Source: Candidatus Spyradenecus sp. (lineage in GTDB: Bacteria; Verrucomicrobiota; Verrucomicrobiia; Opitutales; UBA953). Taken from it: a stretch of DNA of 16,759 nt. The stretch covers positions 1 to 16,759 of the forward strand of contig JAZSKX010000004.1 in NCBI GenBank assembly GCA_045535075.1, written 5' to 3'. A model generated the notes under the pieces. The model did no database searches, was not told the DNA's origin, and saw only the letters and a list, made by a program, of their open reading frames with translations. Positions 1 through 13,900 of this stretch are shown one piece after another. A program made the position numbers and the translations under genes. How positions within the stretch are numbered: the first letter of the stretch is position 1; each line of letters opens with the position of its first letter.

Positions 1-366
1 CACAGGATAACCACAGGTGAAACACTCCGCGTTTTACCTGCAGACAGAACAATGGACCTGACCGTCTCCGAAGGAGACACCCATAAGCAATCCCAAAATC
101 TCACGCACAGATCGAGCAATCACAATACCTGCGAAACAGACATACACAGGATAAACACAGGTGAAACACTCCGCGTTTTACCTGCAGACAGAACAATGGA
201 CCTGACCGTCTCCGAAGGAAACACCCATAAGCAATCCCAAAATCTCACGCACAGATCGAGCAATCTCAATACCTACGAAACAGACATACACAGGATAACC
301 ACAGGTGAAACACTCCGCGTTTTACCTGCAGACAGAACAATGTACCTGACCGTCTCCGAAGGAGAC
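1..366 (+). repeat. 144-bp tandem repeat array (copies at 1, 145 and a partial copy at 289), each carrying a 78-nt REP-like two-hairpin unit; probably continues left of the window
   Basis: CACAGGATAA(C/A)CACAGGTGAAAC starts at 1, 145 and 289. Copies 1 and 2 differ at 4 of 144 positions. Each unit holds hairpin CAGGTGAAAC-actccgc-GTTTTACCTG and hairpin GTCTCC-gaa-GGAGAC (one arm mismatch in copy 2). Confidence 0.95.
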
Positions 367-454
367 GCACATAGGATAACCGTAGGTTGAGAGCTCCGCT
401 CGAAACCTACGGGAAGTAAACCCAACCGCTCCGTCTCCGAAGGAGACACCCATA
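352..454 (+). repeat. Transposase-proximal REP-like element (left flank)
   Basis: GTCTCC-gaa-GGAGAC (352-366), 3 nt, CATAGGATAACC (370), hairpin CCGTAGGTT...AACCTACGG (380-412), linker, then GTCTCC-gaa-GGAGAC (433-447) and ACCCATA. Segment 370-447 is 78 nt, the same length as the array unit, with diverged but still paired stems. Confidence 0.85.
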
Positions 455-500
455 TTTGCATTGACCGGAATATTGCCTATCAATTTCGTATGGATTCACC

Positions 501-953
501 ATGAGTTATATTCGATCGCTCTACCATCTTGTTTTTCGCACCCGAAACAGCGCTACCGCACTTACACTTGAGCACTCGGAAGAGCTTTACCGCTATATAT
601 GGGGATTTTGCAAAAAACGGAAATGCGTCCTACTTCGCATCAACGGCATGGAAGACCATCTTCATCTTTTATTTCGCCTACATCCGGAAATCGCACTTTC
701 CGCATTTGTACACGACTTGAAAATAGCCAGCGGAAATTGGCTCCGGCTTCATAAAAATCTTTTCCCCCTGTTTTCCGGATGGGCGAGATCGTACGCCGCA
801 TTCTCGTATTCACATGAAGAACAAGAGCGCGTTTTGGCGTATATTGCAAATCAGAGAGAACATCACAAAACAAGAACCTTTGCAGAAGAATTTAGGGCTT
901 TTCTTGAAGAAAATAAAATCGAGTTCGACGAAAAGTATTTTCTCGCAGAATAG
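501..953 (+). CDS. tnpA: HUH Y1 tyrosine transposase (IS200/IS605 TnpA family, REP-associated RAYT-like)
   Basis: 150 aa with N-terminal YHLVFRT, HUH motif EDHLHLL, W..SYAAFS and catalytic-Tyr helix AYIANQREHH. No tnpB is adjacent. Confidence 0.92.
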   Translation: MSYIRSLYHLVFRTRNSATALTLEHSEELYRYIWGFCKKRKCVLLRINGMEDHLHLLFRLHPEIALSAFVHDLKIASGNWLRLHKNLFPLFSGWARSYAAFSYSHEEQERVLAYIANQREHHKTRTFAEEFRAFLEENKIEFDEKYFLAE

Positions 954-967
954 ACTTCGCGAGCGGG

Positions 968-1072
968 CGTCTCCTCCGGAGACGATGTGGGCGGGGGGGC
1001 GTACCCTCCACAGGTTGAGCGCGGGAACGCGCTACAACCTGCGGTTATCCCATGGGAGTCCGCTACGCGGAC
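968..1072 (-). repeat. Inverted REP-like element (right flank)
   Basis: The minus strand reads GTCCGC-gta-GCGGAC, 3 nt, CATGGGATAACC, hairpin CCGCAGGTTG...CAACCTGTGG, linker, CGTCTCC-gga-GGAGACG. This is the same order of parts as 352-447, in the opposite orientation. Confidence 0.85.
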
Positions 1073-1181
1073 ATACAGCACTACGACGCTCCGCTCGCCT
1101 AAATCTCCTGCGTCGCCTCCCGCTTCTTCTTAAATCCCCAAGCCGCCCCCTCGCGGGAACGCCTCGCATCAAGTACAAAAA

Positions 1182-1682
1182 TTATTCTCCTTCAGCCAAG
1201 GGCAAATCCTGTTGCCCGTCGGGAGCAAAAACGTCCGGAGAAAAGGGAGCTGAAATAGAAACTGCCCGAAGCGGAACTCCTACGCGGGAACAATAAGTTT
1301 TAGTCCAACGAATCAGCGAGGATTCATCCTCCGAAAGGATAATATCCAGCTTGGAGGCGATCGCCTGACCGATTAGCATAGAATCCACTTTCACGACATT
1401 TCTCGGAATATCCCGATTCTCTTCCCGCGCGGGAACAAAAACTTTTGCCGCCTCAGCAGCGTGCTCTCTGTCAAACGATTCAACAACAATTTCCGGAAAT
1501 ACGTCCAAAATTTTTCCGATATCCTCTTTCACCGAAAATTCCGCTACGCTTAGAGCCGAAACGCAAAGGATATGTCCCTGCTCAATCGCACTCGAAACGT
1601 AGTCCGCCGCGTTCCCGTGGTTTTTTCGGGATGCGTCAGCGAGGGAAATCAAAACACCCGTATCAATGAGGATTTTTGCCAT
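1182..1682 (-). CDS. PIN-domain (VapC-like) ribonuclease/toxin
   Basis: 166 aa with the acidic PIN tetrad pattern ILIDTGVLI, SVAEF, KVDSMLIGQA, ILSEDE. It starts 3 nt after the upstream stop, with GGGGAGG upstream. Confidence 0.88.
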   Translation of the reverse strand: MAKILIDTGVLISLADASRKNHGNAADYVSSAIEQGHILCVSALSVAEFSVKEDIGKILDVFPEIVVESFDREHAAEAAKVFVPAREENRDIPRNVVKVDSMLIGQAIASKLDIILSEDESSLIRWTKTYCSRVGVPLRAVSISAPFSPDVFAPDGQQDLPLAEGE

Positions 1683-1685
1683 CAG

Positions 1686-2480
1686 CTACTCGTCCTCCCC
1701 GCGTAAATCCCGCAACCACGCATTGTGGTCAGAAACGTCAGCCCAAATTTTACGCCCTTCTTCCGCTACTTTTTCCAATTTCGCCATCCGATCTTTCCGT
1801 GACAAAGCCGGCTTTGCGGAAATAATCTTCACCAAATGAAAATTTTTCTTCTCCAGCGTGCGGGGATGATACTCATAGCGAATTTTCAACGTTACCTCGC
1901 TGTAAATCTTGTCAAAACCGCGCAACATATCTTTGGACGATTCTACGACCAATAAATTCTTCTCCCCGGGAACCGTTATATGAAGATTCGCTTTTTGCTT
2001 TCCGCCCACGTTCTCAACCGTTCCCGTGACAAAACGCTCAACGCGAATCCACGATGCCTGCTCCGGCGGAAGCTTCAGCGGCGTTGCTTTGGAAATTTTC
2101 AAATTGTTTTCAGGCGACCCAATCGAATAAGCCACAGACTCATCCTTCATCGCCGCTCGCTCCCATTCGCGGGCAATATCGATGCGCTCTTGCGTTGAAA
2201 CAGCGTCTTCATCTCCGGCACTAATCGCCGCAACATCTGCCGACAACGCATTTGCAAGTGCCGCAGGAACGGCAAAAACCAAGCGTAAAGAACCGTTTTC
2301 CATCGCGGGAGCGCGATGCGGAGCATTACCGTCGTTCCCGTAAACGAACTTCATTGCTTGCTCATAAAATTTCAAAAAATCGTTCCGACTGATATGCTCC
2401 AGAGACACAAAGCGTCCGTCTGCCGTCTTCTTCGAAAACGACAGAGGAATCTTCACAAACTCTGTTCCCGCATCAGACAT
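1686..2480 (-). CDS. Hypothetical protein coupled to the PIN gene; candidate large antitoxin/partner
   Basis: 264-aa ORF. The C-terminal tail KIWADVSDHNAWLRDLRGEDE resembles VapB-type neutralising helices (my pattern recognition, not a search result). The 3-nt gap to the PIN start suggests coupling. Confidence 0.75.
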   Translation of the reverse strand: MSDAGTEFVKIPLSFSKKTADGRFVSLEHISRNDFLKFYEQAMKFVYGNDGNAPHRAPAMENGSLRLVFAVPAALANALSADVAAISAGDEDAVSTQERIDIAREWERAAMKDESVAYSIGSPENNLKISKATPLKLPPEQASWIRVERFVTGTVENVGGKQKANLHITVPGEKNLLVVESSKDMLRGFDKIYSEVTLKIRYEYHPRTLEKKNFHLVKIISAKPALSRKDRMAKLEKVAEEGRKIWADVSDHNAWLRDLRGEDE

Positions 2481-2566
2481 TTTTTGAAATCTTTTATGAA
2501 CAAAATTCTTCTACCAAAATCATAACTTGGCGAGGAAAAATTCGAGAGCCCAAGATATCAACAACT

Positions 2567-3664
2567 TCAAGGTTCTTTGTGCTTTACAAAAGAAGTTATC
2601 GATGATGCTAAGTCTTGAAACGGAGATTTTTCATCACATTTTTTATCCAAGGTTGAGCTAGCATTGAACAATAGAGCGCCAACAGCACCATCAAGAAGTT
2701 TCTCTTCCATTTTTATTCCTTCTTTTGCCAACATTTCTGCCTGCTTCCTATAATTCTCATAAGAAGAGGCAACAGACTCTTTATGTGCGTACTCTTGTTC
2801 AAGTCGACGACTTTCACTACGCCTTTTGGCACTAAAAACAGCGAACCAAATACACGGGATATAGAACGGCAAAAGCGACAAAACTCTTTTGGCAACACAT
2901 TCAAAGGATCTTGTACTGTCTGCGGTTGCTACCAACGCTCCCCACTCCCACGTCAATTTGCCATCATGAGACTCTCCTACAAAAATAGTAAACGCAATGA
3001 GAAGCATAAAAGCAATCGACACTACGAACGATAAGTTCCAAATTTTTATCGATTTCTCAAAAGACTTCCTCATCTCTGAAAAAGATTTTGTTAAACCAAC
3101 CGCTGTTGCTCCCGGAAGCAAGGCTTCAATCCTGTCAAACAAAACGTCACATTTCTGATTTTGTTCACCCAACAAGTTTTCTGATTTCTTTAATGCCTCA
3201 TCAACTTTATGATCTAAAGAGTCAACGACCTCGCCGCCTTCATTCGAAGTTCCAAAAACTTTTTCGAAAAAATCCTCCAGTTTCTTTTGCTTCTCGCGCA
3301 ACCTCATCGCGCGAAATTCGATAGATTCTATAGCACGATTTACCTTGGAGGAGGCATTCTCTATCCTTTTCTCTATAGGGACAAAAGAACTATCTTTTGG
3401 ATCTCCCAAAATTCTCTTATACGCCTCATCTATTTGATTTCTCCTCTCTTGGATGTACTCAAGGTTTCTCGAAACCTCATTGAATACTTCCTCCTTTTGT
3501 CGTAGAAAGGTATGTTGCAGTCGTTCAAGATTCTGCCTTACTTCACGAAGTTGAGCACGTTCTTGATTAAGTTGCAGATCCATTGCAGATGCTTTCTCCG
3601 AAAGCATCCTTGCGGACCACGGCTCTACATTTCGAAAACTTGTTCTTTCATCTTCTACTTTCAT
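2567..3664 (-). CDS. Coiled-coil protein with two C-terminal transmembrane helices, function unknown
   Basis: 365 aa with a charged heptad-like N-terminal ~190 aa, then LLPGATAVGL, hydrophobic IWNLSFVVSIAFMLLIAFTIFVG and VLSLLPFYIPCIWFAVFSA, then RRLEQEYAHK. Visibly AT-rich relative to its neighbours. Confidence 0.8.
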   Translation of the reverse strand: MKVEDERTSFRNVEPWSARMLSEKASAMDLQLNQERAQLREVRQNLERLQHTFLRQKEEVFNEVSRNLEYIQERRNQIDEAYKRILGDPKDSSFVPIEKRIENASSKVNRAIESIEFRAMRLREKQKKLEDFFEKVFGTSNEGGEVVDSLDHKVDEALKKSENLLGEQNQKCDVLFDRIEALLPGATAVGLTKSFSEMRKSFEKSIKIWNLSFVVSIAFMLLIAFTIFVGESHDGKLTWEWGALVATADSTRSFECVAKRVLSLLPFYIPCIWFAVFSAKRRSESRRLEQEYAHKESVASSYENYRKQAEMLAKEGIKMEEKLLDGAVGALLFNASSTLDKKCDEKSPFQDLASSITSFVKHKEP

Positions 3665-3688
3665 TTACGGTATCCTCAAATAACAAAA

Positions 3689-4818
3689 TCAACGAACTAT
3701 TGTAGTAAGTAGCAACGAGAGCATTTCTCGCAATTTTTCATTTTCAAGCTTCTTATTGTACCAATTCATAAAAATCGGATTTAGCTGGGATTTTATTTTG
3801 GATAAATCTTCTTCCGTCGGAATTAAAACCGGAATTGAAAACATATTTGCTTGGCTGATTTTTGCTTGAACTCCTCCCGTGATAATATCCTCAATTTTCG
3901 AATTTCTGAGAACGAGATAAAGGAGATTCTCATCAAAGCCGTTTTTACCTTTTAAAATATGGGCATGATTATTCACCCAAAACTTCCCGCGAACATACTG
4001 CACGACAGGCGTTTTATCTTCATTCATCACAGTTCCGTCTTCTCCCATCAAAATATAACAACCATCAAATAGATAATCATCAACATAGTCCATGAGAGAA
4101 GCCGCACCATAGTAAGGATAAAGCTTCTTCATGTTTTCTCGTTCGTATCCCGCAAGCGGTTTTCGTCTGTAGTCAAAGCATTCCGCGATTTCGGAGAGGG
4201 TTCCTGTGCGCCAGCCGGGGGGAAGGTGGGCGGGATCGATGTTGTCCACGAAGGTGCGGCGGTAGAGGGTTTGGGCGGCGGATTCGAGGGTGGAGATGAG
4301 GCGTTCGTTGAGGCAGATGCGGCGCGTGAGTGTTTCGTATTCGGCAACGATTTCGCGTTGGCGGGAAAGCGGCGGAATCGGCAGACGCAAATCGCAAAAA
4401 TCTTCCCACGTCAAACTTCCGCGAACACCACCGACGGCATAGAAGCTGGCTTCCCGATCGAATTCCTTTCGGGAAAACCACATCATCAAATATTTTGGCA
4501 AAAGCGTTCCCGTATCAATGATTTCAAACATCGGATACGCAGGAGACATTATTGCGGATTCTTCTTCAAACATCGCAATCGGTATTTTCCCATCGCGACT
4601 CACCTGCATAAGACTACACGCAAACTGTTCCCGCCGGATAACTTTATAATTGGACAAATCTGTCCCTATGACATTGGCAACCGACGGAATAAACGCTTTG
4701 TCGATAGTCAGACCGACAAGTTTCGTTACCGTCAACTCGCGGTTGCGGGTTCGACTTCGCGGATGTAATCGCCGAGGCGTTTGTAGTCGGTTTTATTCTT
4801 CAGAGAGTTTTCGGGCAT
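3689..4818 (-). pseudogene. hsdS: Type I restriction-modification specificity subunit with an apparent 1-nt frameshift near 4750 (long ORF 3689..4735)
   Basis: Two TRDs with conserved LPIPPLSRQREIV, LPPGWRTGTLSEIA and IPVLIP segments. The typical N-terminus MPENSLKNKTDYKRLGDYIREVE starts at ATG 4818 in another frame and stops at TGA 4734-4732. Adding one A at 4750 restores ...EVETRNRELTVTKL..., about 376 aa in total. Confidence 0.88.
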
Positions 4819-4849
4819 TTCCGTGAGTAAAGTATCAATTTTCGGCGTG

Positions 4850-4955
4850 TTATTTTACTTTTGGGGCTAAAAGTAAAATAAGGCACTTTCTTATTTTAGT
4901 TTCGAGGCTAAAAGTAAAATAACGGATTTTCTTATTTTACTTTCCGTAAATAAGG
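4850..4955. repeat. Three 41-bp-period palindromic units (13-6-13 inverted repeat) between hsdM and hsdS
   Basis: TTATTTTACTTTT-ggggct-AAAAGTAAAATAA (4850-4881, perfect), TTATTTTAGTTTC-gaggct-AAAAGTAAAATAA (4891-4922) and a truncated TTATTTTACTTTCCGTAAATAAGG (from 4932). The 9-nt linkers are ggcactttc and cggattttc. Confidence 0.9.
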
Positions 4956-4957
4956 CA

Positions 4958-4995
4958 GGCGCGGGAACGTCAGGAGGCGCCGGCGTTCCCGCGCC
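4958..4995. terminator. GC-rich hairpin downstream of hsdM built from two inverted GCGGGAACG motifs; possible terminator or pause site
   Basis: GGCGCGGGAACG (4958-4969) pairs perfectly with CGTTCCCGCGCC (4984-4995). There is no clean U-tract directly adjacent. Confidence 0.45.
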
Positions 4996-5046
4996 GGCTC
5001 ATTTGCGTTTCCGGCTCCGTTTGAGTTATTAGAAATTTTCGAATAA

Positions 5047-6636
5047 CTACCGTCCCTTCCGATTCTCCTGCAGCTTAATTTCGTAGCCAAGGTTTTTGAA
5101 GAGGCTGAGCACTTCTTCGCGGGAACGCGCTTCCTCGGCGAGCAATTCGGACATTTCGGCTTGGAGTTCGCGCATCTTGGTGTCGAAATCCACGGATTCA
5201 TCGCGATTGACGAACTCGATGTATTTGCTGGGGACAAGCGACCAGCCTTTGGCTTCGATTTCTTCGAGCGTGGCGGAATAGCAATATTCGGGAACGTTTT
5301 TGTAAGTTTTTTCGTGTCCTTCGCGTTGCCAGTTGTGAAAATTTTCGGCGATGCGGGAAATGTCTTCCGGTGAGAAGCGGATATATTTTTTCTCAAAAGG
5401 TTCGCCCCATTGGCGCAAATCTACGAAGAGCACTTCATTTTCGCGGGAACGGTATTTGACGGGCTCGCCGTTTTGGACGACGGTGCGTGCCTTGCGGTTG
5501 CCCGCCAAGATCCACAGCGTAACGCTGATGTCCGTCGAATAAAACATGTTGCGCGGGAGAATGACGATGGCTTCGACGAGGCGGTTTTCGAGCAGGCGGC
5601 GTCGGATGGCGAGCTCGGTCCCGTCGCCGGAGAGCGCGCCGTTGGCGAGGAGGAAGCCGGCGGTTCCGTCGGCGGAAAGTTTGGAAACGATGTTGAGAAT
5701 CCAAGCGTAGTTGGCGTTGCTTGTAGGCGGGATGTCGTAGCCGGCCCAGCGCGGGTCGTCGCGGAGTTCGTTATCGGCACGCCAAGCCTTTTGATTAAAG
5801 GGCGGATTTGCCATGATAAAATCCGCTTTGAGGGATTTGTGGCGGTCGTTGTGGAAAGTGTCGGCGGCAGATTCTCCGAGATTGTTGGCGATCCCGCGAA
5901 TGGCGAGATTCATTTTGGCGAGTTTGTAAGTTGTGTTGGTGTATTCCTGCCCGTAAACGGAAATATCGCGCTTGTTCCCGTGGTGAGCCTCGATGAATTT
6001 CATACTTTGGACGAACATTCCGCCGGAACCGCAACACGGGTCGTAGATTTTCCCGCGATAAGGCTGAATCATTTCCGCGATGAGATTGACGATGCTTTTC
6101 GGCGTGTAAAACTCGCCTTTGCCCTTGCCTTCCGCGATAGCAAATTTGGAAAGGAAATATTCGTAAACGCGTCCGATGAGATCGTTCTCCCGGTCTTTGA
6201 GCGTGTCGATTTTGTTGATTTCGTCGAGAAGCGCGGCGAGCTTTGTGCGATCGAGTCCGAGCCCGGAGTAATAATTGCTCGGGAGCGCACCTTTGAGCGC
6301 GGGATTTTCTTTTTCGATCGCGGCGAGAGCGGCATCGATTTTAACGGCAATGTCGTTCTGCTTGGCGTTTTCCATAATGAAACTCCAGCGCGAGGTTTCG
6401 CCGAGAAAAAAGACATTTTTCGCGTTGTAAAAGACCGCCTGATCGACAAACGCGCCTTTGCCGTCGGCGATCAGTTCCTCCCGTCGTTCGACAAAACGGT
6501 CGTCGGCATATTTTAGAAAGATCAAACTCAGCACGACGTGCTTATACTCGGACGGTTCGACGGATCCGCGCAGCTTATTTGCGGATTCCCAAAGCGCTTC
6601 TTCGATACTTTTTGTCTTAATTTGATTTTTTACCAT
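5047..6636 (-). CDS. hsdM: Type I restriction-modification system N6-adenine methyltransferase subunit M
   Basis: 529 aa with LWESANKLRG N-terminus, GEFYTP, SAM-binding YDPCCGSGGMF, YGQE and catalytic ANPPFN. Confidence 0.97.
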   Translation of the reverse strand: MVKNQIKTKSIEEALWESANKLRGSVEPSEYKHVVLSLIFLKYADDRFVERREELIADGKGAFVDQAVFYNAKNVFFLGETSRWSFIMENAKQNDIAVKIDAALAAIEKENPALKGALPSNYYSGLGLDRTKLAALLDEINKIDTLKDRENDLIGRVYEYFLSKFAIAEGKGKGEFYTPKSIVNLIAEMIQPYRGKIYDPCCGSGGMFVQSMKFIEAHHGNKRDISVYGQEYTNTTYKLAKMNLAIRGIANNLGESAADTFHNDRHKSLKADFIMANPPFNQKAWRADNELRDDPRWAGYDIPPTSNANYAWILNIVSKLSADGTAGFLLANGALSGDGTELAIRRRLLENRLVEAIVILPRNMFYSTDISVTLWILAGNRKARTVVQNGEPVKYRSRENEVLFVDLRQWGEPFEKKYIRFSPEDISRIAENFHNWQREGHEKTYKNVPEYCYSATLEEIEAKGWSLVPSKYIEFVNRDESVDFDTKMRELQAEMSELLAEEARSREEVLSLFKNLGYEIKLQENRKGR

Positions 6637-6651
6637 GACGCGGGAGCGGAA

Positions 6652-7044
6652 CTAAAAAGTCTGCAGGTTTATTTTTCTGAAGATGAACCAAATCATGCCG
6701 AGACAGGTTATGAGTGTTAAGGCAAAATTTGTTCCCGCGCAAATCCAATCACCGCGCTTTAAAAGCAAAATAGTTTCCAAGCCGAACGCCGACATTGTAC
6801 TCAAGCCGCCCAAGAATCCGGTAATGAGAAAGAGGCGCAAGCCGGAACTGAGTTCGCAAGTTCCGCGAAATGAAATTCCCGCCAGGCAAGCGATCAATAT
6901 GCACGCGATCAAGTTTGCCAAAAATGTCGCAAGCGGAAATCTCAGAGTTCCGAGCCAAGCGACAACGGCAACTCCGATTCCCCAGCGCAAAACACCGCCC
7001 AAGCCGGCTCCGATAAAAACTAACAATGCGTCACGCACACACAT
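6652..7044 (-). CDS. crcB: Fluoride efflux channel Fluc/CrcB
   Basis: 130 aa with four hydrophobic segments and motifs GAGLGGVLRW, FPLATFLAN and TGFLGGLSTMSAF..ET. Confidence 0.93.
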   Translation of the reverse strand: MCVRDALLVFIGAGLGGVLRWGIGVAVVAWLGTLRFPLATFLANLIACILIACLAGISFRGTCELSSGLRLFLITGFLGGLSTMSAFGLETILLLKRGDWICAGTNFALTLITCLGMIWFIFRKINLQTF

Positions 7045-7099
7045 AAAGTCCCGTTTCTACATGTACAGGAAATGCCTCGGTATCATAAAAAATGCGCTC

Positions 7100-8275
7100 C
7101 TAGGCAACGAGAACGATTTTTCGGATTTTGTCGGCTCCCGGAATTTTTGTACGAATTTTCCGGAGTATCGCGCTTTTTTGGAATTCGAATTCCTGCCGAA
7201 CAACCGGGTTCGTACACTGCACTTTAAGCGTCGAAAAATTATTTTCAAGCGCAACGGGCGAAGTACGCCCTGCAAGTTTTTCGGGAATTAAATTATGCCA
7301 TTCCCGAACAATAGCCGATTGCAGGCTATATTCAAAAAGCCCGCGGGAACGCAAAAGGTTTTCCCAAAACGGCGCAACATCCTGCGGCTCTGTTTTGCTC
7401 TGCTCGCGCCGCGCCTCAGAAGTTTCGGCAAAGCGGCGGGAAATTTTGATTTCTTTTTCCCGATCTAAATCTCCATATTTCCGGGGCGCCGGATCTTCCT
7501 GCGGGAAACCGCTCAACGCAGCGAGCAGATTATTCGCGCTACGCGTCAGTTTTTTTTTTGAGATTTCTCCGACGAGGCGTTCCCGCAAGTACTCGGGAAC
7601 GCCGCGCAAGCTCGGAAAAATCGGAACGTTTTCCGGAGGAAGTTCCGTTGCCCGCGTTGTTACCCAAGCCGCATTAGCACCGAAACGGACGGCGGGAACG
7701 ATGTCTTCGGCGAGCGTGTCCCCGACATGCAACAGTTCGCCGCGCGGAATGCACATTGTGCGGCAAAGATTATCAAACGCTGCTTCACTCGGTTTGGCGA
7801 CACCGGTCTCGGACGAAACGAGGATTTTGTCGAAAAAATGAGCGATTTTCTTGTCCGCCAAGGCTTTTTTCCAACGGGAATCTCCATTTGAGAGAACGAC
7901 GGTTTTTACGCCGAGAAAACTGACAGCTTCAAGCGCGGGAACGACATCCGGCATCAGCTTCCAGTGCTCCGGAGATGCCAAGGCCCGATAAATGAAATCG
8001 ACGGCGATCTCGAATTGGCGGTTGTTGCAGCGCCCGGCGAAAATCTCCCAAAGCATGGCGCGCCAATAGTCGCGGGAACGCTGTTCGCTTGTCGGGCTGT
8101 TACCGTTTGCCTGCGCCACGCGGCGGGCGAGATTGCGGCGGGCGTTGAATTCCGTTGCATCCGGAATGTTCGGAATGTTTTGCGCGCGCATCGCGTCAAC
8201 GCACAAATCGCCGATCGACGGGAACGGCTTCAAGAGCGTTCCCGTGAGGTCGAAGGACACAACGGAGATTTTCAT
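7100..8275 (-). CDS. HAD-IA (REG-2-like) hydrolase fused to a C-terminal DUF721/DciA-like domain
   Basis: Start chosen at ATG 8275 (391 aa), 5 nt after the GH13 stop. HAD motifs are FDLTGTL, LSNGD, AKP and HVGDTLAED. The last ~75 aa (IVREWHNLIPEKLAGRTSPVAL...LKVQCTNPVVRQEFEFQKSAILRKI...IRKIVL) fit the DUF721 pattern. Confidence 0.85.
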   Translation of the reverse strand: MKISVVSFDLTGTLLKPFPSIGDLCVDAMRAQNIPNIPDATEFNARRNLARRVAQANGNSPTSEQRSRDYWRAMLWEIFAGRCNNRQFEIAVDFIYRALASPEHWKLMPDVVPALEAVSFLGVKTVVLSNGDSRWKKALADKKIAHFFDKILVSSETGVAKPSEAAFDNLCRTMCIPRGELLHVGDTLAEDIVPAVRFGANAAWVTTRATELPPENVPIFPSLRGVPEYLRERLVGEISKKKLTRSANNLLAALSGFPQEDPAPRKYGDLDREKEIKISRRFAETSEARREQSKTEPQDVAPFWENLLRSRGLFEYSLQSAIVREWHNLIPEKLAGRTSPVALENNFSTLKVQCTNPVVRQEFEFQKSAILRKIRTKIPGADKIRKIVLVA

Positions 8276-8280
8276 TGAGC

Positions 8281-10794
8281 CTAATCTTCTCCGCGAATCC
8301 AAAGCGAGACGGACAACGGCGGGAGCGTAAGGAATGCTCCTTCGTGAGAAAATCCGCTTTCGGGCGCGACGCCTTCGAAGTCGATTTCCGAGGAATTTGC
8401 AATTTGGCGGAATCCTTCGAGTACAGACTTCTGAATTTGAACCGTTGCCTCTGCGCTTTGCGGATTAAGCATGAGCGCGTATTGCATTTTTCCCTGAGAA
8501 AAATCGGCGTTATAAATCGCAACAACGGCAGTATTTCTCTGATCGGGATAAAAGCGGAAAAACTCGCGGGAAACATTGTGGCGCTGGCGGAAGAGGCGTC
8601 CGCGCGGAGAAAGCCGGAAGCGAATCCACGCGCGCACGAATGCGTGCGTTTTTGCGAAACGAATCAAACGCGTGTAATCGAGCGCATTTTCTTCGCCGTC
8701 GAGATAGGTGTTGTTTTTTCCGTGTTTTGTACGGAGGAAATCCTGACCTTGGGCAAGCATCGGAGTTCCGAGCGCGGAAAGCAAGAATGCGAACATGATG
8801 TGCGTCCGCCGCCGATCCTGTTCGGTCGGATTTTCGGCGTTGGAGTTCCCGCATTCGGTGATGCGATCAAGCCAGCAACGGTCATCGTGCGACTCCGTAT
8901 AGTTAATTGTCTGCGCCGGGAACGTTGCGAAATATTCGGGAGATCCGGCGAGGAAGTAGCGGAATCCGTCGAGGTTGACGGCGTTGTGAACGTATTTTGC
9001 GGCGTAGTCGCGGAATCCGTCGTTCCAAGACGAGAATGTTGTTTTTCTTAAGTTGTATGCGATGTGCCCGCGGAAACTCCACGGCTCCGCAATGAGAATC
9101 GCATCCGGGAAACGCGTACGCACAGTTGATTCGATAACGCGCAACGCGGGAACGCCGATAAGTTCGGCGAGGTCGAAACGGAATCCGTCCACGCCATAGC
9201 GTTCCAGCATCCAAATCAGACTGTCGCAAATGAGCTTTCGGGACATCGGATTGTTTGCGTTGTAATCGTTCCCGCAACCGCTCCAATTGGTAAAATTGCC
9301 GTAAGGGTCGAGATGGAAGTAGTAATTTTTGTCGACGCGGAAAAGGTGGTTCGGCTCGCCGACATGATTATAAACGACATCCAAAATAACCGCGATTCCC
9401 GCCTCATGGAATGCGTCGACGAGATCTCGGAATCCTTCGATTTGCGTTCCCGCGGACGGATCGGACGCATAATGCGAAGCCGGTGCGAACCAATTATTCG
9501 TCATGTAGCCCCAGTGATAATCTTCGCGTTTTTCCGCATCGAATTCCTGAATCGGTTGCAATTCAACGGCATTGATGCCGAGATTTTTCAGATAACAATC
9601 GGGCGATCGGACCCACTCGGCAAGCTCCCGAAAACCGATTGTTTTATTTTCCGAAAACTGCGGCAGGCGCGCAATCAGGTCGCGCAGATGAACTTCCATG
9701 ATCACCAGGTCCGAAAGATCCGGCGTATGAAACTTCTTGGAAGGAAATCCGATTTGGCTTTCATCGACAACAATCGCCGGGCCGCTTCGGCTGCAACAAG
9801 CTTTGGCGTAAGGATCCAAAATCGGCATGTCTTCGGCAAACGCCGATGTATTGTCCACGTTTTTCCCGCTTATGTAATAGAAATAAAAACATCCGGAAAG
9901 GTTGGCGTTGTATTCGTATTCCCAAACTCCGTTTTCGAGCGGACGCAAATCAAATCGCCTGCGAGCGACGTTCCCGCTCCAAAATTCGACGCTTACGGAC
10001 AAGGCTCGCGGAGCAAAAATGCGGAAAACCGTTTTCTTTCCGTCACGGGAAATATGCGAACCGAGCGGAATCGGCGAAAAAATTTTCGCAATCATGAATC
10101 CTGCCTTCACCGGAATTGCGTGCGGGCGATCCGCGCTGTTCCACACCAATTCCTCAGGCAGATTAAAATCAATCGGACGTTCGCAGATAAATTGGAAAAC
10201 CTGATAGCCGGTTTGATTGCGCCGGGCGCACAAATTGCCGTTCCCGCTTTCGTCCAAAACTAAATTGACGGACTCTGACGGCGGGCCAAGCCATTCCCCG
10301 GCCTTCGTAACAAATTTAAACGAAACCTTTTCCGTGTGGTCGCCGTAAAACACGTTTTCCTGCGGAACCCGCAGTTCCCAAATATCATATTGCCCGCTGA
10401 CGACGCGCCGGAGACGCCAAGCCGGATTGCCGATGGCATCTTTCCAGCCGTTAAAATTGCCGGCAACAAAAACTTCCGCATCCGGCGCTACGTAATGCCC
10501 GCTGTAAAGACGCGGATAAAGCACGAACACGACCGTGTTCCCGTCCATGTAGTAACCGTAATTGATCCCTGCGATTTGCGGCGGCACTCGGACAATTTCG
10601 CGGATGCGTGCTCCCGAACGCAAGCTCAGCGGCGGCATTTTTTTTAAATCGCGCCAGTCGCAGGAAAGAAAAACAATTCCGGTGTTGCTCGAAACCCAAA
10701 GCGCCGACTCCAAAGATGCGTGTTCCGAAGATTGTGCATTGGCGAGTGCGGGAAGCCCCAAAAAGTTAGAAAGTTTTTTAAACAGAGAAGACAT
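8281..10794 (-). CDS. GH13 pullulanase/glycogen-debranching-like enzyme with CBM48-like domains
   Basis: Motifs VFVAGNFNGW, FRIFAPRA, DPYAK, YHWGY, DVVYNH and catalytic GFRFDLAE / IAEPW / YTESHDD. ATG 10794 (837 aa) is preferred over ATG 10860, which lies inside a hairpin. Confidence 0.92.
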   Translation of the reverse strand: MSSLFKKLSNFLGLPALANAQSSEHASLESALWVSSNTGIVFLSCDWRDLKKMPPLSLRSGARIREIVRVPPQIAGINYGYYMDGNTVVFVLYPRLYSGHYVAPDAEVFVAGNFNGWKDAIGNPAWRLRRVVSGQYDIWELRVPQENVFYGDHTEKVSFKFVTKAGEWLGPPSESVNLVLDESGNGNLCARRNQTGYQVFQFICERPIDFNLPEELVWNSADRPHAIPVKAGFMIAKIFSPIPLGSHISRDGKKTVFRIFAPRALSVSVEFWSGNVARRRFDLRPLENGVWEYEYNANLSGCFYFYYISGKNVDNTSAFAEDMPILDPYAKACCSRSGPAIVVDESQIGFPSKKFHTPDLSDLVIMEVHLRDLIARLPQFSENKTIGFRELAEWVRSPDCYLKNLGINAVELQPIQEFDAEKREDYHWGYMTNNWFAPASHYASDPSAGTQIEGFRDLVDAFHEAGIAVILDVVYNHVGEPNHLFRVDKNYYFHLDPYGNFTNWSGCGNDYNANNPMSRKLICDSLIWMLERYGVDGFRFDLAELIGVPALRVIESTVRTRFPDAILIAEPWSFRGHIAYNLRKTTFSSWNDGFRDYAAKYVHNAVNLDGFRYFLAGSPEYFATFPAQTINYTESHDDRCWLDRITECGNSNAENPTEQDRRRTHIMFAFLLSALGTPMLAQGQDFLRTKHGKNNTYLDGEENALDYTRLIRFAKTHAFVRAWIRFRLSPRGRLFRQRHNVSREFFRFYPDQRNTAVVAIYNADFSQGKMQYALMLNPQSAEATVQIQKSVLEGFRQIANSSEIDFEGVAPESGFSHEGAFLTLPPLSVSLWIRGED

Positions 10795-10813
10795 GATTTC
10801 GGGAATGCCGTGC

Positions 10814-10842
10814 AGACTATAGGACTTCACACGGATTGGCAA
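10814..10842 (-). promoter_or_regulatory. Candidate sigma70-type promoter for the GH13-HAD-crcB-hsdM transcript
   Basis: Minus strand TTGCCA (10842-10837), a 17-nt spacer, then TAGTCT (10819-10814), about 20 nt upstream of ATG 10794. Confidence 0.4.
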
Positions 10843-10845
10843 GAA

Positions 10846-10912
10846 ACGAAGTAAGCGCATTTCCGGGAAAATCCGATTGGTTTTCAGGAAGGCGAAAATG
10901 CGCTCGCTTCGT
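10846..10912 (-). terminator. Long imperfect hairpin after the PEP-CTERM gene stop; probable terminator
   Basis: ACGAAG-ta-AGCGCATTT (10846-10862) pairs with AAATGCGCT-cg-CTTCGT (10896-10912). It begins 6 nt after the stop and is followed by TTCTT on the minus strand. Confidence 0.55.
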
Positions 10913-10918
10913 CATACG

Positions 10919-13900
10919 TCAACGCCGCTTGCGGCGTCGTGAAAACGCAAACGCGAGGGAAAGCGTTCCCGCAAGAACACCGAAAAGCGACGGTTCGGGA
11001 ATCGCCAAAATTCCGACGGTTCCGTCACGTCCCGTTCCCGAGAAATAAAGCTCGAACAAATTGCCCCGGAGATTTGAAAAATATCCGCTCGCCAAGGCAT
11101 CTTCCCCGGAAATCAAGTCGCCCGGATTGAGAATTTTTGCATTTTCGCCGTTGCCGAGAATCAAACTGTCAACCCCGGAAAAGAGTGTAAGCTTTTCCCC
11201 TGCGCTCAAAGCATCGGCACGCACCAAAACAGCATCGCTCAAGAGAATGCCCTGCTCCAGCGTTACCGAACTTCCCATGGAAAGTCCGCCCTCGGCGACA
11301 TCCAACGTCGAGCCGATATCCAAAGTGAGGTTTGCGTTCAGATGTGCTCCGGCACCGAATGAAGCCGTTCCCGTAACACAAACACTTGCCTCCGTTGCCG
11401 TATTTCCGGGGCTATCCTTGAAGAATCCGGCAATTGTATCCTCGCCGATTCCCAAGTCCGTCAACTCGTAATTTTCCGTCCCGTACATGTTGAGCGTTCC
11501 CGCCGCCGCATTGACTACCGCAAGTGCATTTCCGGAATTATCAATCGTAAGCGTTCCCGCACCGGTTTTTTCGAGTGTACCGCGTCCGCCGGAACGTTCC
11601 AACGCACGCGTTGAATTCAGGCTTGCACCCGCTGCGACATCGTACGTTACGAGTGCCTTGTCCGAAAGCGTCGTCGCAACGGCAAGCGTGTTCGTTCCCG
11701 AAATAGCCTTGATCGTTCCCGCCGAGTCGATTGCGACAGCGGCTTTTTCGCCGTCGATTGTCGTATCGTTCAAAGAGAGCGTTCCTTCGGAAAGAGTCGT
11801 CACGTTGTTCAGCGGAACAGAATTATCCACCGCCAAGCTCGCGCTTTTTTGGACGGTAATTCCGGCGGCATTGTTGAACGCGGAATTGTGCTTGAGCGTT
11901 CCCGCGCCGACGACTTCCAGGCTTGTCGTCCCCTGCAAACCAAGCGTTCCCGTAAAGGAGACGGTAACGCCTTCCGTTTCACTGCGTTGCATCCGAAAAT
12001 CGGCATCCGCTGTCGTTGCCGCCGTGTCGACGGTAATCTTACCTTCGGTATCCGCAGAGCCCCAAGTCATATTATTGGAGAATTTTACAGAGCTGCCCGC
12101 CGCTCCGACGGCGCCGATCGTTGTATCGGAAGCAAGACTGACGACAAGTTCACTACGTTGCGTGCCGCCGGCGGCATACAGTTGCCCGCCTTCCTGGACC
12201 AGAAGATTGGCTTTTACGCCTCCGGAAACCCATTCATTATAGGCACTCCCTTTCAATTCCAGCCCGCTGAGCAGATTCATTCGTCCGCCCTCCTGAATAG
12301 TAACATCAGCGGATTTGCGGTAGAGCGTCATGGCAGCATTGGATGTCAGCGTACCATAGACGTTAATTTTATTGGCTCCGGCAGTCAATTGCGACTGCTC
12401 TCCGCCCACCGCCAATACAAAATCAGAAGCCGTTGTCCCGCTGGTTTCCCCGGCGATAATCAGGTGCGCCCCGGCGGATACGTTAAGCTCGGATTTCGCA
12501 TATGCTGCATCATTGGGCATCAGACAGAGCCCTTTCACGTACATCGTGCCATTGGCATCACTACCGCCAATGGTCAGCGTTCCGGAACTATGATTGTAGT
12601 ACGACCGGCGACTATCCAGGCTTGCCCCGTTTTTCAGGTTAATCGTGTTGTTGTTCCAACTGCGCGTCCGTGCAGAGCTTTCGGCAATACTGAGTCCGTC
12701 AATAGTGACGCTCTTGCCGCCGGCCAGGTTGAAGTTGCCGACGCCGAGCGTTCCCGTGCCGCCCAAAGTCACGTTGTTCCCGTTCGGATTGAGTGTTCCT
12801 ACGGTGGCGTTGCCGTTGAAGTTGGCGGTAATATTGCTCTGGTCAAGTGTAACCGTGGTAATGTCGGTTGCCCCGTTGAAGTTGGATGTGGTATTGTCAG
12901 AACCGGTGTCGAAGCCTGCCAGTGAGACAGAGCCGTTGATATCCAGCGTACCGCCGCCTCTGCGTTCCCATGTGCCGCTGCTACCGGAAACGTTCCCGTT
13001 GATGATGAGGTGATTACCGCTGTTCTGGTGTACCTGCGACGTGCCTTCCAGTTCCAGATTGCCGTCAATAGTCGTTTTTGCCGTTATCTGGGCGTTAACG
13101 CCTCCCGCCAGTTTCAGCGTGTTGCCGAAGCTACTACCCGTGAGCGTGAGGTTGCCGGTCGTCACATGAGTCGTCCCTTCAAAATTCTCATCAATGGCGA
13201 GCTTGTTGTTATAGGTGTTACCGGCGGTGTCGAGCTTGATTTGCAAGGTTCCGATGCCGGAAATGTTGCTGACGGTGGCTGTGCTCTCCTGTGTATTGGT
13301 CAGTACCAGAGTGCCGGAGGCGGCAATCTCCACTTCACCCTCGGCTGCGGTGTAGTCCGCCGCAGTCAGCTTGTTGTTGAGCACCAGCTTGCCGCTTTCC
13401 ACATTCAAGTCGCCGCTGAGTGTGATATCGCTGCCGGAGAAGCTGTAGGTTTCGTTGTTCGTGAAGCGCAGACCGCCTGCGGTTGCTGTGCTTGTGAATT
13501 GAAGGGTTTGGGATGGCTCGCGGTCGCGGAACAGAACGGTTTCGCCTGCGCTGAACACGGCATAATCATCCTGCCATTCCGTAATGCCGTCAGCAAAGCG
13601 GACGGTTACTTTCAAGCCGCTACCGTCGGCAGTAAAAGTGCTTCCCGCAAGGTAATCCGGCATGTTGTCTGCCAGTATTGCATTACGCCCGCTCCAGTCG
13701 CCGGAAAGCAAGTTGTAGGTGGCTCCGTGCTCAAGCGACAGATGATTGCTGAAGCTGACGGCTTGATCGCTGAAGTCTTCTCCGTATTGAATGTTTGCGT
13801 TTAGCAGGGATGTCGCGTCATTCAACGCCGTGCTGTCAAATTCCAGAGTACCGCCGTTGAGAATCAAAGTCCCCTCCAGAGTACCTTGCGAGCCGTTGCT

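Follow-up and report, generated by a model that had tools for sequence, protein, structure and literature searches.

An over-represented non-palindromic 8-mer in the gut Opitutales genus of a 'Candidatus Spyradenecus' genome, and its possible role as an uptake-sequence-like signature of self DNA

The 16,759-nucleotide stretch analysed here (the window) makes up the whole of contig C10 (JAZSKX010000004.1) of a 'Candidatus Spyradenecus' sp. genome (GCA_045535075.1, hereafter G000; 1,949,087 bases, 18 contigs, 52% G+C), and is densely populated by a short non-palindromic word, CGGGAACG. This word is the commonest 8-mer of the genome, with 5159 copies on both strands or about 1 per 378 bp; the commonest 8-mer unrelated to it has 1228 copies. 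It is abundant, strand-symmetric and independent of reading frame, is paired in terminator-like hairpins, is depleted in foreign DNA, is restricted to one genus, occupies conserved sites, is accommodated at a cost in amino acids, and is maintained in one lineage while decaying in a close relative. In each sequence-level prediction that could be checked, CGGGAACG behaves as expected of a DNA uptake sequence (DUS), and the reading favoured here, with a probability of roughly 45%, is that the extended motif YYR-CGGGAACG-C (Y, pyrimidine; R, purine) would be a self-DNA signature of the kind represented by the DUS of Neisseriaceae and the uptake signal sequences (USS) of Pasteurellaceae, DNA carrying the word being preferentially taken up or incorporated.

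The initial annotation of the window, made from its letters alone, had pointed to a motif enriched about 50-fold and had listed 27 exact copies of GCGGGAAC, 21 of them extending to the 9-mer GCGGGAACG. All 27 are found where they had been placed, 12 on the + strand and 15 on the - strand, a number reached by none of 200 dinucleotide shuffles (mean 0.94, maximum 4), and the 21 copies of the 9-mer compare with a shuffle mean of 0.36 (maximum 3). The peptides that had been read from the motif (AGT, VPA, RER, RSR, CGN and SGN) are indeed encoded, in both orientations and in several phases, and two of the window sites (4961/4985) lie in intergenic DNA, also as described. The enrichment proved to be real and even understated, and the register slightly off, the information-bearing core being CGGGAACG, with 36 sites in the window.

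Neither is the enrichment confined to the window. Over the genome, the count of CGGGAACG is 75 times that expected from base composition (69 copies, Markov order 0), and Markov orders 1, 2 and 3 lead to expectations of 183, 268 and 587 copies, respectively. Within coding sequences (1420 genes covering 86.5% of bases, as delimited by a crude gene caller of our own), 4316 copies are observed versus 472 ± 19 upon synonymous-codon shuffling within each gene, about a 9-fold excess, and versus 158 ± 11 upon shuffling of codon order, a 27-fold one, so that the enrichment persists against Markov orders 0-3 and against both codon-shuffled nulls. Markov orders 5 and 6 expect 3611 and 5030 copies, respectively, and absorb the signal because CGGGAACG itself dominates the hexamer and heptamer tables; due to the same absorption, a codon-pair-preserving null, as proposed in the initial annotation, would be circular and uninformative. 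A better control, and the one that decides the matter, comes from relatedness: in sister genera that encode these same proteins, counts stay at background.

A frequency matrix built on 5158 sites places a purine before the core (G 63%, A 25%), two pyrimidines ahead of this purine, and C after the core in 47% of sites, with an information content of about zero beyond positions -3 and +1, which yields the extended motif YYR-CGGGAACG-C. The 10-mer GCGGGAACGC has 1614 copies; single mismatches at its eight core positions cut counts mostly 8- to 300-fold, and those at its two flanking positions about 3-fold. Given such uninformative flanks, CGGGAACG is a short sharp word and not the core of a mobile or dispersed repeat of the repetitive extragenic palindrome (REP) or miniature inverted-repeat transposable element (MITE) type. 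Neither the window nor two small contigs poor in the motif gave any match in Rfam.

CGGGAACG is not palindromic, its reverse complement being CGTTCCCG, and is found 2527 times on the forward strand and 2632 times on the reverse strand of G000. When 1.73 Mb of this genome were oriented by the sign of GC skew, 54.9% of the copies fell on the G-rich strand, against 56.0 ± 8.2% for 276 composition-matched 8-mers, while the positive control GCAGGGCG was distributed 154 vs 20 between the G-rich and the other strand (88.5%). No replichore polarity beyond composition is therefore detected by a test that has the power to do so, and CGGGAACG is not like Chi, nor like the FtsK-orienting polar sequences (KOPS), in polarity. 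The large contigs of G000 also carry a family of polar words, comprising GCAGGGCG, AGCAGGG (162 vs 23) and GCAGGGC (232 vs 43, G-rich vs other strand), that looks like the FtsK/SpoIIIE-orienting motif of the organism, of the KOPS or SpoIIIE recognition sequence (SRS) type.

Within genes, 2586 sites read in the sense direction and 1724 in antisense; the other 849 are intergenic, amounting to 16.5% of the sites on 13.5% of the bases. All six phases are occupied. The commonest readings are xGT (AGT 983, TGT 342) and, on the opposite strand, xVPA. Sites are evenly distributed along genes, with no gene-terminus bias, and 92 of the 1107 genes of at least 600 nt lack a site, versus a Poisson expectation of 73. 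Spacing is near exponential (mean 373, median 262, coefficient of variation 1.10), and counts in 1-kb bins are slightly under-dispersed on seven of eight large contigs (variance/mean 0.70-0.98). No consistent period between 5 and 100 kb was found on eight contigs, the best periods differing among them and a permutation p<0.05 being reached in two of the eight, one with a prophage desert.

An inverted partner (≤2 mismatches) accompanies 363 of the 849 intergenic sites. Pairs of the form CGTTCCCG-N(4-20)-CGGGAACG number 154, with loop lengths peaking at 12 nt (53 pairs), and 135 of them are intergenic, 56 being located between convergent, 78 between co-directional and 1 between divergent genes. 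Most pairs display an A-run on their 5' side and a T-run on their 3' side, a shape by which they resemble bidirectional intrinsic terminators and that suggests termination. The opposite arrangement lacks such a peak (92 vs 239 neighbour pairs within 60 nt). Considering instead all 596 terminator-like hairpins outside genes, 278 carry the word in some form, 142 holding the core and 136 more its hexamer.

The word is restricted to one gut Opitutales genus, and the same word is present in all its 19 genomes. Fifteen of them hold 5159-7777 copies (the upper value in about 1.9 Mb; density is about 4.5 per kb in G003), G001, G002 and G013 hold about 1350 each, and G014 holds 552. Among 102 genomes of four sister genera of the same family, counts range from 25 to 383, at most 2.4 times those of the reversed-word control, and in 12 other families of the order the 10-mer is found 0-49 times, like the control. 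Orthologues of an amylase-like gene of the window come from records whose titles name gut Opitutales or Verrucomicrobiota, including 'Candidatus Spyradenecus' and 'Candidatus Spyradosoma', and the loci sampled in the motif-rich clade span 45% to 65% G+C, a range wide enough to indicate that the word does not track base composition. Six records inside this clade (L014, L016, L024, L026, L010 and L017) bear the names Sphaerochaetaceae, Bacteroidaceae or Enterobacteriaceae in their titles, or have been placed under Lentisphaerota.

Two other words were considered and discarded. CGGGTACG, as a dialect, seemed enriched in the sample of G031, but is not so genome-wide, with 163 copies vs 141 for the control. 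The top word of G014, CACCACCAACCC, resembles an intergenic repeat that occurs in clusters, rather than a word of the uptake type: its 9-mer core is found about 80 times in 87 kb (L099-L108), in arrays with 14-19-nt spacing and often at contig ends, and G000 has 7 copies. Words of their own were also observed in sister genera (L248-L257): G033 is enriched in a palindromic unit centred near CCAGGGCAACGCCCTGG, and G034 in CGCCAACACC, counted 26 times in 57 kb of DNA with 71% G+C.

The history of single sites was followed in the amylase-like gene, by aligning the window with 18 loci of the motif-rich clade and three outgroups (22 sequences); single sites are common to 10 to 16 of these sequences. 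Comparison of motif-bearing peptides with the consensus of 21 outgroup loci (of about 60 available, picked among complete matches with no stricter rule) shows AGD/AGS/AGE replaced by AGT, GIEV/GVDV by GVPA, and KKV/KAV by RER, with further changes from RFA/KWP to TFP, SGT/PGT to AGT and LEYA to TVPA. At the CGND site the peptide is conserved everywhere and codon choice alone differs. In a quick maximum-likelihood tree of the amylase-like gene alone, all motif-rich loci fall in one clade, with a support of 100 in the Shimodaira-Hasegawa-like approximate likelihood ratio test (SH-aLRT). The window (3.8 per kb) has as its sister group three low-density loci, L010, L011 and L017 (0.2-0.4 per kb), and a further low-density locus, L020, is nested separately, a separate placement that suggests at least two secondary losses of word maintenance.

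Comparison of G000 with its low-density sister species G001 covered 121,022 aligned columns from 16 G001 loci (about 168 kb), at 78.1% identity. Of the 79 sites of G001, 67 (85%) are intact in place in G000, whereas of the 323 sites of G000 those 67 (21%) are intact in G001, 101 being one base off and 80 two bases off; survival of an unconstrained 8-mer is expected at 0.781^8 = 14%. Decay falls mostly on the wobble position; the commonest single change in G001, A to G at position 5 (22 of 101), is at wobble in either of the two dominant phases, and agrees with the higher G+C of this genome. Thus, sites are held in the G000 lineage, while in that of G001 they undergo approximately neutral decay with hardly any gain, and an active process must therefore maintain the word, having been lost or weakened in the close relative.

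The two largest motif-poor stretches of G000 are Mu-like prophages (G000:C16:183000-222000 and G000:C8:21000-35000; L229-L231) encoding Mu Gam, a MuB-like ATPase, a Mu portal protein, Gp27 and a terminase, where the density of the word drops to 0.59 and 0.36 per kb, respectively, relative to 2.65 per kb for the genome. Depletion in islands is seen in both of them and in a low-GC restriction-modification (R-M) island of the window (0.48 per kb). The larger prophage also encodes, beside its portal gene, a protein with an ADP-ribosyltransferase exoenzyme domain, as well as a D12-class adenine methyltransferase. A hairpin scan of viral contigs (IMG/VR) returned at least 120 stretches, and the DNA of 80 was examined. 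Among these 80, L121 is a host/prophage junction of the genus, and three (L139, L148 and L169, 32-35% G+C) were set aside as tandem GGGAAC arrays unrelated to the genus-wide word; the remaining ones have 2-9 copies each. The arrays consist of same-strand clusters of overlapping GGGAAC units (e.g., CGGGAACGGGAAC), and resemble iterons or repeated binding sites.

The sites and stretches of the window are as follows (core, CGGGAACG; ORF, open reading frame; encoded peptides in brackets).

1..1000, motif-free stretch, with an IS200-type transposase gene at 501-953
1022..1029, + strand, core, ORF 814-1296 sense (AGT)
1154..1161, + strand, core, ORF 814-1296 sense (AGT)
1284..1291, + strand, GCGGGAAC without the final G, one base off the core
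1429..1436, + strand, GCGGGAAC without the final G, PIN gene antisense (VPA)
1610..1617, - strand, core, PIN gene sense (GN)
2019..2026, - strand, core, ORF 1686-2480 sense (TGT)
2333..2340, - strand, core, ORF 1686-2480 sense (GN)
2464..2471, - strand, GCGGGAAC without the final G, ORF 1686-2480 sense (AGT)
2501..4600, low-GC segment (42%) poor in the motif (a single core site, 0.48 per kb), a hypothetical 365-aa ORF and most of HsdS
4505..4512, - strand, core, HsdS sense (TGT)
4627..4634, - strand, GCGGGAAC without the final G, HsdS sense
4962..4991, inverted pair CGGGAACG-N14-CGTTCCCG (the rarer +/- arrangement), intergenic between HsdM and HsdS
5120..5127, + strand, core, HsdM antisense (RSR)
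5289..5296, + strand, core, HsdM antisense (VP)
5444..5451, + strand, core, HsdM antisense (RSR)
6731..6738, - strand, GCGGGAAC without the final G, CrcB sense (AGT)
7344..7351, + strand, core, HAD-DciA gene antisense (RSR)
7578..7601, inverted pair CGTTCCCG-N8-CGGGAACG, within the HAD-DciA gene (RER / VP)
7693..7700, + strand, core, HAD-DciA antisense (VPA)
7936..7943, + strand, core, HAD-DciA antisense (VPA)
8073..8080, + strand, core, HAD-DciA antisense (RSR)
8219..8226, + strand, core, HAD-DciA antisense (FP)
8237..8244, - strand, core, HAD-DciA sense (TGT)
8845..8852, - strand, GCGGGAAC without the final G, amylase-like gene sense (CGN)
8917..8924, + strand, core, amylase-like gene antisense (TFP), position common to 12 of 19 genus-clade orthologues
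9147..9154, + strand, core, amylase-like gene antisense (GVPA), common to 4 other orthologues
9267..9274, - strand, core, amylase-like gene sense (CGND), common to 15 of 19 genus-clade orthologues
9445..9452, - strand, core, amylase-like gene sense (AGT)
9969..9976, - strand, core, amylase-like gene sense (SGN)
10239..10246, - strand, core, amylase-like gene sense (SGN)
10964..10971, - strand, core, 1923-aa ORF sense (AGT)
11033..11040, - strand, core, 1923-aa ORF sense (SGT)
11366..11373, - strand, core, 1923-aa ORF sense (TGT)
11495..11502, - strand, core, 1923-aa ORF sense (AGT)
11552..11559, - strand, core, 1923-aa ORF sense (AGT)
11693..11700, - strand, core, 1923-aa ORF sense (SGT)
11714..11721, - strand, core, 1923-aa ORF sense (AGT)
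11897..11904, - strand, core, 1923-aa ORF sense (AGT)
11945..11952, - strand, core, 1923-aa ORF sense (TGT)
12749..12756, - strand, core, 1923-aa ORF sense (TGT)
12991..12998, - strand, core, 1923-aa ORF sense (GN)
12999..16759, motif-free stretch (3.8 kb, GC about 55%), 5' two thirds of the 1923-aa ORF to the contig end

Regarding the genes of the window, a type I R-M pair lies on the - strand (HsdS at 3689-4735 and HsdM at 5047-6636), and HsdS, together with the neighbouring 365-aa ORF, which has no Pfam hits, forms a low-GC (38-45%), motif-poor block. The specificity end of this system was apparently swapped in recently, segment 2501..4600 reading as a recent acquisition. In the ORF at 7100-8302 (- strand), a HAD-type hydrolase domain is followed at the C terminus by a DciA domain (DnaC/DnaI-antecedent, helicase loader). 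Finally, the 1923-aa ORF (10919-16690, - strand) has no Pfam match and reaches the contig end, and its 12 core sites, all counted in phase xGT (four AGTL; one is listed as GN), occupy its 3' third.

Components that might read the word were sought among competence, recombination and methylation genes. G000 encodes ComEC (570 aa, with a Competence domain), DprA, a secretin of about 990 aa, a PilB/PilT/PilB cluster and six prepilins. Across the genus, ComEC is intact and the ATPase cluster present in 19 of 19 genomes, the secretin in 18 of 19 (the miss being a 92%-complete genome), and prepilins number 6-11 per genome, 10-11 in the low-density ones. Between G000 and G001, identities amount to 80-91% for pilins, 91% for the secretin and 96-97% for PilB. 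A loss of competence genes was therefore discarded as an explanation of the decay, since none of these components is missing from the four low-density genomes. All 19 genomes of the genus encode RecC (PF04257; 1147 aa in G000), as do 6 of the 42 sampled from sister genera; the double-strand-break machinery differs, then, between close genera. Both RecC and ComEC evolve fast throughout the genus (35-47% and 30-54% identity to G000, respectively). Methyltransferases of the 5-methylcytosine (m5C) class, the one profiled, are found in 10 of the 19 genomes with no relation to word density.

Specific DNA recognition in Neisseria is carried out by the receptor ComP, and a small pilin of 141 aa (G000:C5:99026-99448) is put forward as its possible analogue. 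Each of the 15 genomes sampled in the genus has a full-length orthologue (46-91% identity), and the 36 sampled in sister genera have none, the N-terminal helix alone matching there; pilins, it should be considered, are often lineage-specific. A search in 5.8 billion proteins yielded 12 relatives, all with at least 63% identity. Its AlphaFold model displays, with moderate confidence, a plain pilin fold (mean predicted local distance difference test, pLDDT, of 70.9), for which Foldseek found no match in the PDB at E≤0.001, the best being the P. aeruginosa minor pilin FimU (E 0.034, template modelling score 0.32). As a candidate receptor this pilin is a lead, no more.

Among known systems, DUS form inverted pairs in terminators and are scarce in foreign DNA, USS have a 9-nt core with AT-rich flanks, and Chi is polar relative to replication and over-represented only few-fold. 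Like the DUS of Neisseriaceae, CGGGAACG is short, non-palindromic and repeated thousands of times, in either orientation and both inside and outside genes, and it is conserved across related species. It differs from them in its 8-nt core (10-12 nt in DUS), its unrelated sequence, its occurrence in another phylum, and in that no dialects were found in the genomes sampled and a ComP-type receptor is represented by a candidate only, the 141-aa pilin. About 1900 DUS copies are given for N. meningitidis and 5918 for the 2.4 Mb of Kingella oralis, the densest case (Frye et al. 2013, PMC3630211), a density that the shorter CGGGAACG equals or exceeds with 2.65 per kb in G000 and about 4.5 per kb in G003. 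Likeness to the USS of Pasteurellaceae resides in hyper-abundance, strand symmetry, use of all frames and some protein cost; USS accumulation has been explained by mutation together with uptake bias, that is, by molecular drive (Bakkali 2007, PMC1939737). On the contrary, the flanks of CGGGAACG are uninformative, and the gene-terminus bias reported for Pasteurellaceae uptake sequences (PMC2346458) is not displayed by it. The cyanobacterial HIP1 (GCGATCGC) is likewise an 8-mer, with comparable over-representation and density and with conserved sites (PMC5861425), and the same source still calls its role unknown after twenty years of study, although a 2024 preprint links it to transformation efficiency. 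However, HIP1 is palindromic and tied to orphan methyltransferases (PMC4390886), and it is periodic at 10-90 kb, whereas CGGGAACG is non-palindromic, follows no m5C pattern and has no consistent period. With Chi it shares a short, 8-nt, G-rich word and the presence of RecC throughout the genus, but it is non-polar and 75-fold over-represented.

If CGGGAACG is a DUS/USS-like signature, some DNA-binding component of the transformation pathway, acting in the type IV pilus/ComEC route or in a step just after it, would prefer double-stranded DNA containing the word. Uptake and recombination would then favour alleles that contain the word over those that lack it, and such biased transmission (molecular drive), repeated for long, would fill every tolerant position of the genome, at the price of synonymous and mildly deleterious amino-acid changes. 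An inverted pair would be the cheapest way of placing the word between genes, doubling as the stem of an intrinsic terminator. Dispensable sites by the thousands, their amino-acid cost, their conserved positions, and sister lineages with the process on and off are what molecular drive predicts, and not site-by-site selection.

The proposal of the initial annotation that the motif is DUS-like holds at the level of sequence, the word being genome-wide, symmetric, present in six frames, in terminators, depleted in foreign DNA and genus-specific, and is weakened on two points. No variant word (dialect) appeared in the k-mer spectra of G001 (119 kb), G014 (87 kb) and one genome per sister genus (57-100 kb). 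Among the competence genes that it had named, ComEC, DprA and pilins are present, along with secretin and PilB/PilT, but ComEA was not detected in G000, where the best HHH_3/TIGR00426 match is below the cut-off and within an 805-aa Tex-like ORF. Other observations also weigh against preferential uptake. Since ComEC, prepilins, secretin and PilB/PilT have all been retained where the word is at low density, visible gene loss does not explain the decay; relative rates against G004 and G018 show no acceleration of ComEC (nor of RecC) in the decaying lineage; and low-density G001 and G013 retain the 141-aa pilin with 90-91% identity. ComEC, DprA and type IV pilus genes are, moreover, common in bacteria that are not known as transformable, and this genus is known from metagenome-type records only. 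The spacing of sites is close to random, with slight under-dispersion only. Finally, the Mu-like prophages still stand at about 10 times the reversed-word background (about 0.04 per kb), and a lambda-type prophage of the genus, found in a viral contig, has 15 sites in 9.5 kb (1.6 per kb), so that an intracellular process would explain as easily the above-background counts of resident prophages.

Other explanations must consequently be weighed. That the word merely follows from codon usage, from amino-acid composition or from some dispersed repeat element, rather than being a feature of its own, would agree with the dominance of two phases (sense xGT, 1476 sites; antisense xVPA, 1174) and with high-order Markov models giving most of the count. 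Its probability is nonetheless negligible, and such an artefact was discarded, considering that all six phases and 849 intergenic positions are used, that excesses of 9-fold and 27-fold are kept over the synonymous and codon-order shuffles, that sister genera with orthologous proteins remain at background, that flanks are uninformative, and that amino acids have been altered to fit the word. A sequence-directed bias of mutation or repair, in which an intracellular repair enzyme or gene conversion would turn near-matches into the word with no incoming DNA, might account both for the high counts of the word in resident prophages (Mu-like, 0.36-0.59 per kb; lambda-type, 1.6 per kb; reversed word, about 0.04 per kb) and, by loss of a single enzyme, for the abrupt neutral decay of the sister lineage. 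The one-off word CGGGTACG is also rarer than its control in high-density genomes (1 vs 83 in G003), which may reflect GTAC avoidance only. Against this, all eight positions of CGGGAACG are sharply defined, while very-short-patch repair fixes one base in a short context, and no m5C methyltransferase pattern fits. Conserved sites, such as those found here too, have moreover been taken to argue against continual replenishment by biased repair (Xu et al., PMC5861425), and this explanation is considered quite improbable.

Somewhat less improbable, but still doubtful, is a HIP1-like motif under selection, either as the binding site of an abundant chromosome-organising protein or as a site modified by an orphan methyltransferase, and serving the structure of the nucleoid or the processing of DNA rather than its uptake. 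The 75-fold excess is within the 15- to 300-fold range of HIP1, whose sites are also conserved between species (PMC5861425), and the slight under-dispersion of 1-kb counts on seven of eight large contigs would suit such a role. The word is, however, not palindromic, lacks a consistent 5-100 kb periodicity on eight contigs, and has no relation to the m5C methyltransferases present in 10 of 19 genomes; furthermore, with over 5000 sites, selection would need to exceed the cost in amino acids at each one singly, which appears hard without transmission bias. The foremost of the alternatives, though an unlikely one, is a hyper-dense Chi-like mark, RecBCD degrading linear or broken DNA until it meets CGGGAACG, so that word-carrying fragments would survive and recombine and transmission would be biased without uptake specificity. 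This possibility is kept alive by RecC being genus-wide and rare in sister genera; in addition, the core is sharp, G-rich on one strand, and 8 nt long, as is Chi in E. coli, and the word-poor Mu-like prophages encode Gam, a protector of DNA ends. On the opposite side, the word lacks replichore polarity beyond composition in a genome where a polar word is readily seen, RecC-positive outgroups (G039, G048 and G054) show no enrichment, RecC is kept and not accelerated in the four low-density genomes (45.1-46.5% vs 46.8% identity to G004), and the genus-level correlation represents one or few evolutionary events. Neither do a 75-fold enrichment, one site per 378 bp and pairing in terminators fit, and we know of no Chi with such features. 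Since the 2024 preprint reports that HIP1 raises transformation efficiency and proposes both uptake-like and Chi-like roles for it, the uptake and Chi-like readings of CGGGAACG may not be exclusive.

In a literature search, covering texts without their supplements and available in part, neither this word nor any other sequence of the uptake type turned out to have been described in the lineage, in line with what the initial annotation had supposed: hits for the word or its complement are primers and unrelated matches only, and the genus names lead, among the papers found, to genome catalogues and microbiome surveys only. The phenomenon is of the same kind as DUS, USS and HIP1; what is new is that it occurs in a different phylum, that its word is shorter and of unrelated sequence, that no reader is known for it, and that some natural lineages have it switched off. 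To our knowledge, uptake sequences are established in two proteobacterial families only. The word described here would make a third case, unrelated to the earlier ones and in a different phylum, as dense as or denser than the densest DUS given by Frye et al. As a practical marker, CGGGAACG may serve to distinguish native from acquired DNA and to recognise mislabelled metagenome bins. The genus also provides a natural experiment, with 15 maintaining species and 4 close relatives in decay, a contrast that offers a direct comparative route to the gene reading the motif and a test of molecular drive versus selection.

In a bolder and more tentative formulation, some 2-4% of the bases of this genus of gut Verrucomicrobia, and with them amino acids in most of its proteins, might have been rewritten by a switchable, sequence-specific molecular drive whose reader would be something new. 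If so, that reader would be a new DNA receptor (e.g., the 141-aa pilin), RecBCD with a hyper-dense Chi, or a new type of directed repair, and the system would be the first uptake-sequence-like self-recognition outside Proteobacteria and cyanobacteria, with natural on and off lineages available for gene finding. The self-DNA signature favoured here would point to natural transformation, or to another filter for self DNA, in uncultured gut Verrucomicrobia.

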